From the NCBI GenBank assembly GCA_036158635.1, contig JAYYFR010000008.1, forward strand, positions 684-64,683: a DNA stretch of 64,000 nt. The letters run 5' to 3'. Source of the stretch: Bacteroidota bacterium (GTDB taxonomy: Bacteria > Bacteroidota > Bacteroidia > Flavobacteriales > TMED113). The position numbers were made by a program, and so were the translations under genes. Under the pieces are notes generated by a model that worked only from the letters and a program-made list of their open reading frames with translations, made no database searches and was not told the origin of the DNA. Every line of letters begins with the position of its first letter. Position 1 is the stretch's first letter. Positions 14,252-43,373 of this stretch are shown in pieces.

Positions 14252-15391
14252 GTGAGCCGTATAATTTACTTTTTATTAGTATTAATATTTTTTTTAAGTT
14301 GTAGTAATGACTTGGATATTAACGCCGAATGGGATGATATTCCTGTTATTTACTCGGTTTTAAATTCTGGATCCGTAAATCAATCTAATACAGAGCATTT
14401 TATTAGAGTTCAAAAGTCTTTTTTAGGTGATTTTTCTGCTTCTCAAATGGCTCAATTTGAAGATTCAATTTACTACAATGACAACGATATTAAAATTTGG
14501 GTTGAAAAAATATTTAATAATCAGGTCATTGATTCAATTAATATGGATTTAGTATCAAATTTAGAAAAAGACTATGGTTATTTTAACAATGACAATCACA
14601 GAGTTTATAAATTTAATTCACTTCTAACAAATGATAATGGTTTCCCAGCATACAAGTTTAAAATAAATTTACTTAATGAAATTTCTAATGAATTATCTTC
14701 TGCAGAAGTTGATATTGTTGAGCCTATTCGTATTAGAAAATGGCCAACAAATAATAGTCAATCAACTGGTTTAATGAAATTAGGTGAATCTAATAATCCA
14801 ATTTTAAACTTAGAAGTTAACCCATCAATAAATGGAAAAATGTATAGATTCTTTGTTAGGTTTAAATACATTGAAGTTGATATTTTATCTGGTCTAAAAG
14901 ATTCTTTGTTTGTTGATTGGAAATTTAGTCCTAAAGTAGCTACTGAATACCAGTTAAATGGAAATTCAAATTTGTCAATTGATTTTAATATTAACTCCAT
15001 AGAGTTTTTCCAATATCTAGCCTCTGTTATTCCTTTAAAAGAAAATGTTTACAGATACACCGATGGTGTATATTTTCAAGGTAGTGATGAAGGAGATTTT
15101 GGTATAGTTCACCCCTGTATTGAATTACATTTTGAGATTTTAGATGCAGACATGTATAATTATTTTATTTCTCAAAACTCATCAGGATTAGTTCAAAATA
15201 GACCAATATATAGTAATATTAAAAATGGTATAGGTTTAGTTTCCTCTATAAGTCAATTTTCTTTTCAAAATTTAAAATTTGACAATAAATCAAATGATTC
15301 TTTAGCTTTTGGTCAATTTACTAAGAATTTAAATTTTGCCTGTTTTAAAGAAATAGGTTTTGGTTTAGATACAGTTTTAGATTGTCAATAA
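14252..15391 (+). CDS. Lipoprotein, DUF4249-like
   Basis: GTG start; lipobox FLSC; D.PVIYSVL..., IRVQKSF, and C-terminal YSNIKNGIGLVSS. Confidence 0.7.
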   Translation: MSRIIYFLLVLIFFLSCSNDLDINAEWDDIPVIYSVLNSGSVNQSNTEHFIRVQKSFLGDFSASQMAQFEDSIYYNDNDIKIWVEKIFNNQVIDSINMDLVSNLEKDYGYFNNDNHRVYKFNSLLTNDNGFPAYKFKINLLNEISNELSSAEVDIVEPIRIRKWPTNNSQSTGLMKLGESNNPILNLEVNPSINGKMYRFFVRFKYIEVDILSGLKDSLFVDWKFSPKVATEYQLNGNSNLSIDFNINSIEFFQYLASVIPLKENVYRYTDGVYFQGSDEGDFGIVHPCIELHFEILDADMYNYFISQNSSGLVQNRPIYSNIKNGIGLVSSISQFSFQNLKFDNKSNDSLAFGQFTKNLNFACFKEIGFGLDTVLDCQ

Positions 15392-15393
15392 AC

Positions 15394-15466
15394 TGACTTT
15401 TTGTCATCTATTTATTATAAAATTATGTCAAAAATGTCCAATATTGTATTTTGGCATAGAAGTTGT
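15394..15466 (+). promoter_or_regulatory. Putative sigma54 (-24/-12) promoter with upstream TGAC-N5-GTCA palindrome, upstream of dnaK
   Basis: TGACTTTTTGTCA at 15394-15406; TGGCATAGAAGTTGT at 15452-15466 (GG-N10-GT). The same layout recurs upstream of hsp20. Confidence 0.65.
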
Positions 15467-15500
15467 TTTGTTTAAATTATAATAATTAAATTTTAAAATA

Positions 15501-17399
15501 ATGAGTAAAGTAATCGGAATAGATTTAGGTACAACTAATTCGTGTGTGTCTGTAATGGAGGGTAATGAACCTATTGTAATTCAAAATAGTGAAGGAACTA
15601 GAACAACCCCCTCGGTAGTTGCCTTTTTAGAAAATGGTGAAAGATTAATAGGCCAACCTGCAAAAAGACAAGCAATTACAAACCCAGAAAAAACTATATC
15701 TTCTGTAAAAAGATTTATGGGAGAAAGTTTTAAAAATATAAAATCTGAACTTAAAAAAATATCATATAAAGTTATAGAAGGTGATAATAACACCCCCAGA
15801 ATTGATACTGGTGATAGAAAATATACACCTCAAGAAATTTCAGCAATGGTATTACAAAAAATGAAAAAAACAGCTGAAGATCATTTAGGAACAGAAGTTA
15901 AAGAAGCTGTTATTACTGTTCCTGCTTATTTTAATGATTCACAAAGACAGGCAACAAAAGAAGCAGGCGAGATAGCTGGTTTAAATGTTAGAAGAATTAT
16001 TAATGAACCAACTGCAGCTGCTTTAGCTTATGGTTTAGATAAAAAAGATCAGGACATAAAAATTGCTGTTTTTGATCTTGGAGGTGGGACTTTTGATATT
16101 TCTGTACTAGAACTTGGTGATGGAGTTTTTGAAGTAAAATCAACAAACGGTGATACTCATTTAGGTGGGGATGATTTCGATCAAGTTATTATTGATTGGA
16201 TGGCAGAAGGATTTAAAGAAAAAGAAGGTATAGATTTAAGAGAAGATTCAGCTGCTTTAGCAAGATTAAAAGAAGCTGCTGAAAAAGCAAAAATAGAATT
16301 ATCTTCAAGCACTGAAACAGAAATAAATTTACCATATGTTACTGCTACATCATCTGGACCTAAACATCTTGTTGAAAAGTTATCTAGATCTCAATTTGAA
16401 AAAATAGCTGACTCACTAATTCAAAGGTGTCTTGAACCATGTAAAAAGGCTGTTTCTGATGCAGGTCTCTCTGTTAATGATATTGACGAAGTTATATTAG
16501 TTGGTGGTTCAACTAGAATTCCTGCTGTTCAAAATATTGTAGAAACATATTTTGAAAAGAAACCATCCAAGGGAGTTAACCCAGACGAAGTTGTTGCTGT
16601 TGGAGCAGCTATTCAAGGTGGTGTGTTTAGTGGGGATGTTAAAGATGTTTTATTATTAGATGTTACTCCTCTTTCTCTAGGTATTGAAACAATGGGAAAT
16701 GTTTGTACAAAATTAATTGAAGCAAATACTACAATTCCAACTAAAAAATCTGAAGTTTTTTCTACAGCTTCTGATAATCAACCTGCTGTCGATATTCACG
16801 TTTTACAGGGAGAAAGACCAATGGCAAAAGATAATAAAACAATTGGAAGATTTCAATTAACTGATATTCCACCTGCACCGAGAGGTGTTCCACAAATTGA
16901 AGTTACTTTTGATATAGATGCTAATGGTATTATTAACGTAAAAGCTAAAGACAAGGGAACTGGAAAAGAACAAAATATCAAAATAGAATCTGGCAATAAA
17001 TTATCAGATGAGGAGATTGAAAAAATGAAAAAAGAAGCAGAAGCAAATGCTGAAACTGATAAGAAGGCAAAGGAATTCGCTGATAAGATAAATACTGCTG
17101 ATACTTTGATTTTTACTACAGAAAAACAGTTAAAGGAAAATGGAGATAAAATACCAAAAGATAAAAAACAAGAAATAGAAAGTCTTTTAAGTGCACTAAA
17201 AAAAGCTCACTCAGATAAAGACTTAGAAGGTATTGATAAGTCTATTGAAGCTTTAAACAATATGTGGCAGTCAGTTTCTCAAGATATGTATAAAAACCAG
17301 AGTCAAGAAAAACCTACTGAAAATAAAAAGAGTAAATCTAATAATGAAGATGTTACAGATGTAGATTTTGAGGAAGTTGATGATGACAAAAAATCATAA
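15501..17399 (+). CDS. dnaK: Chaperone DnaK (Hsp70)
   Basis: [50 protein letters not shown]. Confidence 0.99.
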
Positions 17400-41578: not shown

Positions 41579-42013
41579 TTGTATATAATTGTTTTATTTT
41601 TTTCATTTTTAATTTGTTTTTCACAAGAGATGGATAAAAAATACTTAAAGAAATTAACACCTGAAGAAATTGAGGTAATTGTAAAGAAAGGAACCGAAAG
41701 ACCCTACTCAGGTAAATACAATGATTTTTACAAGGAAGGTTTATACGTTTGTAAAGCTTGTGACAATCCATTATTTTACTCCGATGATAAGTTTAATTCA
41801 AATTGTGGATGGCCTTCTTTTGATGACGAAATAAAAGGATCGATAAAAAGAATACCCGATTATTCTTTAGGAAGAGTAAGGACCGAAATTATTTGTTCAA
41901 ATTGTAATGGTCATTTAGGCCATGTATTTGAAGGTGAAAATTTCACAGAAAAAAATATTAGACATTGCGTAAATAGTATTAGTATAAAATTTATCGAAAA
42001 TGAAAAAAAATAA
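41579..42013 (+). CDS. msrB: Peptide methionine-R-sulfoxide reductase with a signal-peptide-like N-terminus
   Basis: KGTERPYSG, CKAC, CGWPSFD, RTEIIC..C.GHLGHVF, RHCVNS; TTG start. Confidence 0.95.
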   Translation: MYIIVLFFSFLICFSQEMDKKYLKKLTPEEIEVIVKKGTERPYSGKYNDFYKEGLYVCKACDNPLFYSDDKFNSNCGWPSFDDEIKGSIKRIPDYSLGRVRTEIICSNCNGHLGHVFEGENFTEKNIRHCVNSISIKFIENEKK

Positions 42014-42788
42014 GTTATTTATAATTTTATTGTTTCTAAATATTTTCTTTCTTTTTTCACAAGAAAACAACAAAACATCTAAGGAGCAGTTAAAAAATAT
42101 GTTTTTTTCTGATAATGACATGAATTCAATTTTCTTTACTAAAAAAAATATTAATCATTATAAAATAAAATCTTTTGACGCGTTTGGAAATAAAATTCCC
42201 TTATGTATTAATGAAAAATTAGAAATATTTTTAGATTGTGAAAATAGAACTAAGTATGCTCAAATAATTGATTCAAAAATTTATAATAATGAAATGAATT
42301 TAATTGGGCATTGTTATTTTGGTAAAATAACAGAGAAAGATTTAGATAACTTTTGGAAAACTTTAAAACATTGGAAAGGTAATATTACAATATACGACGA
42401 AACAGAATCATTTAGAATAGCAACATTTATGTATTTTAAAAAAGAAAAAGATTATTTTTCAATTATGAATTTGGATACAACTGCAACAGTTAAGATGTTA
42501 AATAAATCTTATAAGAAATTACTAAAAACTTATAATATTGATAAGTTTCCTGATGACGATGAGGTAATTGCGAAAAATAAAGAAATTGAAGAGGCATTCA
42601 TTGCAATATCAAAAAAAATAGATCCAGACTATGAAGACAATAATAATTGGTTAGAGGAATTTTTTTCAAAAAACAGAAGAAGTATGTGGAGTCAAGATGA
42701 AGGGTATGTTCCATATATAAAAAGAGAGATAAAAGAAACAAATCCTGTCTCGAGAGAAAATAAAGAAAGATATCCTTTTCTAGATTAG
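42000..42788 (+). CDS. Hypothetical exported protein with a degenerate J-domain-like region
   Basis: Signal peptide ending LFSQ; aa 151-205 DYFSIMNL...A....LNKSYKKL..TYNIDK.P.....K.KEIEEAF align by eye to the J-domain consensus. Confidence 0.6.
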   Translation: MKKNKLFIILLFLNIFFLFSQENNKTSKEQLKNMFFSDNDMNSIFFTKKNINHYKIKSFDAFGNKIPLCINEKLEIFLDCENRTKYAQIIDSKIYNNEMNLIGHCYFGKITEKDLDNFWKTLKHWKGNITIYDETESFRIATFMYFKKEKDYFSIMNLDTTATVKMLNKSYKKLLKTYNIDKFPDDDEVIAKNKEIEEAFIAISKKIDPDYEDNNNWLEEFFSKNRRSMWSQDEGYVPYIKREIKETNPVSRENKERYPFLD

Positions 42789-42871: not shown

Positions 42872-42953
42872 ATGACTTTTTGTCATAAAATAATAAAATT
42901 TTATTAAAAAAAAATGACACTTTGTCTTATTTTTTATTTGGCACAATATATGC
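42872..42953 (+). promoter_or_regulatory. Putative sigma54 (-24/-12) promoter with two TGAC-N5-GTC(A/T) sites, upstream of hsp20
   Basis: ATGACTTTTTGTCAT at 42872-42886; TGACACTTTGTCT at 42915-42927; TGGCACAATATATGC at 42939-42953 (GG-N10-GC). Confidence 0.7.
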
Positions 42954-42986
42954 TCTATTAAAATTGTTAATCAAAATAAAAAAATT

Positions 42987-43373
42987 ATGCTTACAATAAG
43001 AAATAGACCTTTTAACTACCTTGATGATTTTAATTCATTAATTGATAATATTTTTGATGATACTCAAATTTTATCCTCAAATAATAATTATCATTTTAGT
43101 CAAAATGAAAAAGAAATAATAATTGAATTGCCTTTACCAGGAATTGAAAAAAAAGATTTAGAATTAAGCTACTCTAATGGTTATTTGAAAATAAAATATG
43201 AATCAAAAAATAACAATAATTTAAATTGGGTAAATAGCTTTCAGGAAAATATTGAAATCACAGAACAAATTGATGAAAATAAAATTAATGCTAAGTTTAA
43301 AAATGGGTTGATGGTTATAAATATTCCAAAAAAAATTAAAGTAATTAAAGAAAAAATTATTGAAATAAAATAA
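42987..43373 (+). CDS. Small heat-shock protein (Hsp20/alpha-crystallin)
   Basis: IELPLPGIEKKDLEL, IDENKINAKFKNGLMVINIPK, C-terminal IEIK (IxI motif). Confidence 0.9.
   Translation: MLTIRNRPFNYLDDFNSLIDNIFDDTQILSSNNNYHFSQNEKEIIIELPLPGIEKKDLELSYSNGYLKIKYESKNNNNLNWVNSFQENIEITEQIDENKINAKFKNGLMVINIPKKIKVIKEKIIEIK

Follow-up and report, generated by a model that had tools for sequence, protein, structure and literature searches.

The chaperone operons of this flavobacterial genome, dnaK, hsp20, groES-groEL and grpE-dnaJ, probably lie behind sigma-54 promoters with a TGWCA enhancer that is most likely bound by EBP2, an activator encoded upstream of groES. Published work describes a sigma-54 promoter without an activator at such genes; here we propose a specific DNA element and a specific protein. 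In this small marine flavobacterium an ATP-driven switch may replace the usual heat-shock regulators. The window, a stretch of 64,000 nt that holds dnaK and hsp20, is part of contig C8 in an assembly of 1.02 Mb (29 contigs, 27.6% G+C, estimated completeness 59.7%).

The dnaK gene (15501..17399, + strand) encodes a protein of 632 aa, and the elements upstream of it are on the same strand. The distal half-site pair at 15394..15407 (+) is the 14-mer TGACTTTTTGTCAT, which reads TGACT-TTT-TGTCA plus T and is centred at about -78 from the predicted transcription start site (TSS). The proximal pair, TGTCAAAAATGTCC at 15426..15439 (+), is degenerate: it reads TGTCA-AAAA-TGTCC with a 4-nt spacer, has its centre at about -45 and ends 12 nt before TGGCA. 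The sigma-54-type -24/-12 element TGGCATAGAAGTTGT follows at 15452..15466 (+), reads TGGCAT-N5-TTGT with a GG-N10-GT spacing and is separated from the start codon by 35 nt. By the -12 rule we infer a TSS near 15478, which would give a 5' UTR of about 23 nt. Congeners G002 and G003 also have the distal site, as do three reduced genomes (G028, G044 and G057). The 4-nt-spacer form of the proximal site is kept in congeners G001, G002 and G003, and its position agrees with the -26/-17 pile-up of half-sites in relatives described below.

The hsp20 gene (42987..43373, + strand) encodes a small heat-shock protein of the Hsp20/alpha-crystallin family (128 aa; PF00011, E 7.7e-12). Its distal half-site pair at 42873..42886 (+) is again the 14-mer TGACTTTTTGTCAT, identical to the dnaK site and centred at about -86; this site is kept in congeners G002 and G003. 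The proximal pair TGACACTTTGTCT at 42915..42927 (+) reads TGACA-CTT-TGTCT, has its centre at about -44 and ends 11 nt before TGGCA. Congeners G001 and G003 keep it as ATGACAyTTTGTCtt. The sigma-54-type element TGGCACAATATATGC at 42939..42953 (+) reads TGGCAC-N5-ATGC (GG-N10-GC) and lies 34 nt before the start codon, and the TSS is predicted near 42965 with a 5' UTR of about 22 nt. The pattern TGGCAY-N5-WTGY matches the window only at 15452-15466 and 42939-42953. The preliminary description, made from the letters of the window, had reported the shared 14-mer, the degenerate second sites 11-12 nt before TGGCA and the TGGCA(C/T)-N5-(T/A)TG(C/T) elements with GG-N10-G(C/T) spacing, and we found all of these as described. 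The ORF directly before hsp20, at 42000-42788 (+), resembles a J-domain protein only weakly: PF00226 gives 27.1 bits, slightly below its cut-off of 27.8.

Marine metatranscriptomes matched the dnaK stretch in 20 runs from 12 studies, all as contigs without 5' ends. Four runs from four studies, compared with window positions 14900-16000, give cover from the bin of the start codon (15492-15528) onwards and none before it; being contigs only, they say nothing on the promoter. A few pieces over dnaK are near-identical (15689-15866, 0 differences). Most are only 90-95% alike, which indicates that they come from other organisms.

Taken alone, the 14-mer or the -24/-12 pattern is weak evidence, and neither is significant in the window. 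With up to 2 mismatches allowed, 4 matches to the 14-mer were found in the window where 2.66 would be expected, and 27 of 100 shuffles had at least that many. The -24/-12 pattern has 2 matches against 0.61 expected, a number that 12 of 100 shuffles reach. A strict composite was defined as a half-site pair, 10-15 nt and TGGYA-N6-NTG, with 40 first-order Markov genomes as background. This composite occurred 3 times in the 1.02-Mb genome, whereas the Markov genomes contained 0.075 on average and never more than 1. All three precede chaperone genes, namely hsp20, groES and grpE; dnaK falls outside the strict composite because its proximal site has a 4-nt spacer. The combination of a half-site pair with a -24/-12 element is not a product of chance. 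A copy of the 14-mer with one mismatch, TGATTTTTTGTCAT at window positions 17383-17396 (-), falls in the final codons of dnaK and points towards the end of the convergently transcribed gene; it is probably due to chance.

Across the assembly TGAC-N5-GTCA was found in 10 places, 4 of which are the promoters of dnaK, hsp20, groES and grpE. A perfect palindrome, TGACAACTTGTCA, stands 12-13 nt before TGGCA-N6-TTGC both at groES (contig C21) and at grpE-dnaJ (contig C6). The -24/-12 element itself reads TGGCAT-N5-TTGC at groES and TGGCAG-N5-TTGC at grpE. All four chaperone promoters follow the sigma-54 pattern, with the GG and GC (or GT) doublets exactly 10 nt apart. No such promoter or motif was present within 220 nt upstream of htpG and clpB of the same genome, and the Lon N-terminal domain had no match in the assembly (59.7% complete). 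The suggestion that the motif pair would recur at other chaperone genes is thus borne out at groES and grpE-dnaJ, where it is also conserved in relatives, and fails at htpG and clpB. A loose scan for sigma-54-like words gave 144 matches genome-wide, mostly intragenic, and was uninformative alone. At two other sigma-54-like promoter candidates in front of genes of this genome no TGNCA pairs were found, which suggests that the pair is specific to the chaperone set.

The relatives set comprised 21 genomes, from the same genus to other families of the order, with 68 regions upstream of groES, dnaK, grpE and hsp20. A sigma-54-like element was found 30-100 nt before the start codon in 65 of the 68 regions, although the genomes counted are related to each other, so that this and the following counts overstate independence. 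By gene, the element was present in 19/20 (groES), 17/17 (dnaK), 19/21 (grpE) and 10/10 (hsp20) of the regions; the three regions without it are groES of G014, grpE of G015 and grpE of G017. Half-site pairs with 8-9 bp spacing, at most 100 nt upstream, accompany 54 of the 65 promoters, compared with 0.33% of shuffled upstream regions. The remaining 11 promoters have no recognisable half-site pair.

With TGGCA as the anchor and positions counted from its T, 42 of the 65 regions have a TGNCA that starts between -26 and -24, and 28 of 65 have one that starts between -18 and -16. Other TGNCA peaks appeared near -49, -57, -69 and -77, with almost nothing between. Relative to the predicted TSS, the half-site pairs thus occupy three positions, with centres near -45, -76 and -97, at intervals of 2-3 helical turns. 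TGNCA is symmetric about its centre, which explains why the pair reads TGACA...TGTCA in some lineages and TGTCA...TGTCA in others. The pattern spans 9 families, and the four promoters are not homologous to each other. Flavobacterium-like genomes often have only single TGTCA half-sites at groES. This comparative evidence supports the interpretation of the preliminary description, which took the two genes of the window as members of a candidate heat-shock regulon.

The classical heat-shock regulators gave no convincing matches. The absence of CIRCE claimed earlier held genome-wide, the best match having 5/18 mismatches. The CIRCE consensus used was TTAGCACTC-N9-GAGTGCTAA, and loci from other classes of the phylum do carry this sequence in front of groES. 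The HrcA domain PF01628 had no match in our genome and was found in 0/5 relatives. With the RpoH equivalog model TIGR02392, the best scores in 5 genomes were 154-162 bits against a cut-off of 323.1, and the matching frames are 287-292-aa proteins of the sigma-70 family. No TAnnTTTG box, the promoter type that had been named as the alternative, was found within 130 nt upstream of dnaK, hsp20 or grpE. These results agree with the proposal that neither HrcA nor RpoH is in control.

Beyond the order the picture is mixed. In a phylum sample of 27 further groES loci, CIRCE lies upstream of groES in 14 (families f25, f29 and f34). These loci (L109, L113-L114, L116-L121, L124-L127 and L132) carry textbook CIRCE in other classes. 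Another 10/27 have a sigma-54-like element at groES, 5/5 of family f24 among them, and 3/27 are unclear. Two chaperone control systems thus coexist within the phylum. Judged by promoter sequence, the putative sigma-54 system holds for the order and one clear locus of the same class (G315; two more are unclear), and not for the whole phylum. The earlier designation as a Bacteroidota heat-shock regulon therefore stands order-wide and is too wide for the phylum. Family f24 (L108, L122, L123, L128 and L129) belongs to another class. Its groES has a good sigma-54 element, TGGCAC-N5-TTTG, and a TGACA-N4-TGTCA palindrome about 25-40 nt downstream of that element in 5/5 loci.

A check for rpoN had also been proposed. 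In our assembly, which is 59.7% complete, PF04552 and PF04963 both had no match. The rpoN DNA-binding domain PF04552 was found in 16/21 genomes of the relatives set, our own genome counted. rpoN was present in 2/4 congeners searched (G001 and G003) and in 8/8 high-quality relatives, and because of this distribution we read its absence as a probable assembly gap. The DnaK N-terminus and GroES of G003 are identical to those of our genome. The check is thus positive for two congeners, with no match in the incomplete assembly itself.

The enhancer-binding activators that the preliminary description called for are encoded: our genome has two Sigma54_activat (PF00158) proteins, which we call EBP1 and EBP2. 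EBP2 (403 aa) has PF00158 at residues 14-179 (E 4.3e-67) with a GAFTGA loop, followed by the AAA lid at 185-263. After a linker of about 100 residues, its C-terminus carries a Fis-type HTH (HTH_8, PF02954, 361-401, E 2e-13). The domain profile search gave no domain N-terminal of the AAA+ domain, so that EBP2 is sensor-less. None of the 25 NCBIfam models listed for EBP2 reached its cut-off. Among solved structures, its nearest relatives are the AAA+ domains of FlrA, FleQ, NtrC1, ZraR and PspF. In an alignment of 20 sequences (19 orthologs and our own) the HTH is almost invariant and the linker varies; a conserved helix, RE-I/L-LYK-I/V-LFDM...DLK, follows the lid. Structure prediction from this alignment gave a mean pLDDT of 55.9 and a pTM of 0.40, with only the lid and the HTH confident. 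The low-confidence parts of the model read as a helix at 277-304 and disorder at 304-359.

EBP2 is also linked to groES by position. The gene order is miaB-EBP2-lptE-ORF-secG-groES, which places EBP2 about 1.4 kb upstream of groES. Of 20 genomes with both genes, 19 have EBP2 1.4-2.2 kb upstream of groES on the same strand, the exception being G019. Orthologs were found in 290/301 genomes of the order and in 232/235 of the high-quality ones. A TGTCATTTTGTCA pair lies about 45-60 nt before the miaB start at 15998 (contig C21, locus L137), upstream of the miaB-EBP2-lptE operon. No canonical -24/-12 element follows it. This pair may reflect autoregulation of the activator.

EBP1 (385 aa) has a REC domain (4-115) and Sigma54_activat (141-308), no HTH, and a GSFTSA loop instead of GAFTGA. 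On contig C6 (51551-55203) grpE, dnaJ, a gene of the Ppx/GppA family (ppx) and EBP1 are arranged head to tail behind the grpE sigma-54 promoter. In 13/13 genomes of family f1, our own counted, EBP1 is encoded on the strand of grpE and at most about 3 kb downstream of it. Because it is packed behind the grpE promoter, this second activator may be induced along with the chaperones. No EBP1 was found in G013, G014 and G020, or in the reduced genomes G028, G044, G057 and G207. Since it has no DNA-binding domain and was not found in these seven genomes, EBP1 cannot be the general activator.

Genomes with a single sigma-54 activator point to EBP2. G014 (100% complete) and G020 (99%) have rpoN and a single sigma-54 activator, which is the EBP2 ortholog. 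Both keep the elements at dnaK and grpE, and G020 also keeps them at groES. The same holds for four reduced genomes of another family: G028 (345 kb), G044 and G057 (about 625 kb) and G207 (1.5 Mb). In each of them rpoN is accompanied by exactly one Sigma54_activat protein, again the EBP2 ortholog, whose gene in G028, G044 and G057 is found 0.3-0.9 kb before groES. All four have half-site pairs together with TGGCA-N6-TGG or TTG in front of groES. At dnaK, pair-like sites with a -24/-12-like word are evident in G044 and G057, less so in G028, and ambiguous in G207. In G287 (about 300 kb, 8 contigs) there is a shortened EBP frame of 281 aa, and neither the rpoN DNA-binding domain nor a motif at groES or dnaK was found. 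It looks like this genome lost all parts of the system together.

From these data we propose the following mechanism. The operons dnaK, hsp20, groES-groEL and grpE-dnaJ would be transcribed from sigma-54 (-24/-12) promoters, on which the sigma-54 holoenzyme would form a closed complex at -24/-12. The enhancer would consist of two TGWCA half-sites 8-9 bp apart, ideally aTGACAnyTTGTCAt, in 1-3 copies per promoter. These copies, near -45, about -76 and about -97, would lie on one face of the helix. EBP2 dimers would bind the phased TGWCA pairs and assemble into an active ring, whose ATP hydrolysis would open the closed complex. The activator sites of NtrC and PspF are much farther from the promoter than the proximal site at about -45, and the long EBP2 linker may permit action from a site as close as this. 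Both the binding of EBP2 to the half-site pairs and the way in which heat would be sensed are inferred. Against this assignment, 8-9 bp between half-sites is a small distance for two HTH domains of a dimer, and the genomes of this family have another activator gene, EBP1, shortly after grpE-dnaJ.

The activity of EBP2 is probably set in trans, for example by free chaperones. EBP2 is sensor-less and is kept in genomes of a few hundred kb with little room for sensors, which suggests such control. The activities of sigma-32, HrcA and PspF/PspA are set in trans. That free chaperones would be the simplest agent for EBP2 is a tentative suggestion. Equally speculative is a wider view of EBP2 as the master heat-shock activator of the class Bacteroidia. 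It would be intrinsically active, checked by free chaperones through the post-AAA+ helix or the linker, bound to a promoter-proximal phased enhancer and kept together with rpoN in genomes of 345-625 kb. If true, EBP2 under such a check would be the sigma-54 counterpart of the sigma-32/DnaK feedback loop. Since 345-625 kb is the size of insect endosymbiont genomes, an unchecked EBP2 there could account for constitutively high GroEL.

The main competitor, to which we give a minor share of the probability, accepts the sigma-54 promoters and takes the TGWCA pairs as operators for another protein. Such a protein might be a repressor that heat inactivates, or a co-activator seated immediately before the closed complex; the activator would then act from elsewhere or from solution. 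With only 11-13 nt between the proximal site and TGGCA, a protein bound there could contact or obstruct the holoenzyme, and the position of the f24 palindrome, downstream of the groES sigma-54 element in every locus, would suit an operator. However, a genome of 345 kb, in which spare regulators would be unlikely, retains the sites along with rpoN and EBP2, and in G287 the sites vanish together with rpoN. Farther upstream, near -76 and -97, the distal sites share one helical face, an arrangement that resembles an activator array, and HrcA was found neither in our genome nor in the five relatives. The preliminary description had combined RpoN with an unnamed dimeric regulator. The RpoN-type promoters remain from that proposal, and the regulator is most likely the enhancer-binding protein itself rather than an extra factor.

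It is improbable that EBP1 is the activator, working from solution after phosphorylation while EBP2 and the palindromes have another role. That EBP1 follows grpE within about 3 kb, on one strand with it, in all f1 genomes would fit such a role. Yet the seven genomes in which EBP1 was not found keep sigma-54-like chaperone promoters, and its loop departs from GAFTGA. Least credible of all is the reading of the motifs as chance products of an AT-rich genome, with the genes read from ordinary sigma-A promoters. It draws on the 27.6% G+C of the genome and on the single motifs, neither of which is significant in the window. It is contradicted by the excess of the composite (3 against 0.075), all at chaperone genes, by the fixed offsets conserved across 9 families, and by the lack of a TAnnTTTG box within 130 nt upstream of dnaK, hsp20 and grpE. 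In addition, published TSSs of F. psychrophilum lie at sigma-54 motifs (PMC9723704). We therefore retain EBP2 on the TGWCA pairs as the preferred reading.

Compared with PspF of E. coli, EBP2 has the same layout of AAA+ followed by HTH without an N-terminal sensor, and structures such as 2bjw match it (E 1e-55). PspF is held in check in trans by PspA. EBP2 is not a PspF equivalog: it scored 271.8 bits with TIGR02974 against a cut-off of 443.55. Unlike PspF, it has the linker of about 100 residues with the conserved helix RE-I/L-LYK-I/V-LFDM. Its proposed targets are cytoplasmic chaperones, whereas those of PspF are the phage-shock operon. HrcA-CIRCE and RpoH (sigma-32) control the same target genes as proposed here (groESL, dnaK, grpE, dnaJ and hsp20), but our genome differs from such systems in that no CIRCE, HrcA domain or RpoH equivalog was found. 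Heat-shock genes under sigma-54 and an enhancer-binding protein are known from HsfA/HsfB of Myxococcus xanthus and from the sigma-54 promoter of E. coli ibpB. Those cases are single genes beside a sigma-32 or HrcA system. In contrast, sigma-54 appears here to carry the core chaperone set, and neither classical system was found.

Sigma-54 promoters at flavobacterial chaperone genes have already been published (PMC9723704, PMC12316311). Mapped TSSs of F. psychrophilum placed the sigma-54 motif SM4 at groESL, lon, dnaK, grpE-dnaJ, htpG, skp and clpB (Guerin et al. 2021, ISME Commun, PMC9723704). F. psychrophilum and our genome thus share -24/-12 promoters at groES-groEL, dnaK and grpE-dnaJ. The F. 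psychrophilum list also has htpG, clpB and lon, whereas in our genome htpG and clpB are without the motif and lon was not found. In F. psychrophilum, as in our genome, an operon annotated as 'probable sigma-54-dependent regulator - LptE' lies a few locus tags from groES. The 5' UTRs of 22-23 nt predicted here are in line with the median of 24 bp in that species. According to the same article three candidate activators exist and none is assigned. Its main text contains neither 'palindrom' nor 'inverted repeat', and hsp20 is not among the SM4 genes in the part of the table that we examined (PMC9723704).

A PSSM survey of sigma-54 regulons (PLoS One 2025, PMC12316311) predicted promoters at GroEL, IbpA (Hsp20), GroES, GrpE, DnaJ and DnaK, and the chaperone predictions were most enriched in Flavobacteriia. 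In the available part, unlike in our analysis, that survey deals with promoters only, without an enhancer motif or activator assignment. In the accessible literature we found no assignment of an enhancer or an activator. A named heat-shock regulator for the group was likewise not found in the literature searched.

If the assignment to EBP2 holds, it would explain the control of proteostasis in marine flavobacteria and probably in many other members of the class Bacteroidia. The survival of an alternative sigma factor and a single ATPase activator in genomes of a few hundred kb would then be accounted for as well, and the locus would provide a case of an enhancer directly beside a sigma-54 promoter.

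Two further sites were noted outside the chaperone operons. TGACATTTTGTCA at contig C29:117916-117928 lies about 65 nt before a gene that reads like TrmD and is followed by an rplS-like ORF; no sigma-54 element comes after TGACATTTTGTCA at this gene. The other site, TGGCACGAAATTTGTA on contig C21:3432 (-; locus L135), precedes by 34 nt an ORF of 137 aa whose start resembles a signal peptide. It has no TGNCA pair within 170 nt upstream, which makes it a candidate sigma-54 promoter of a different regulon.
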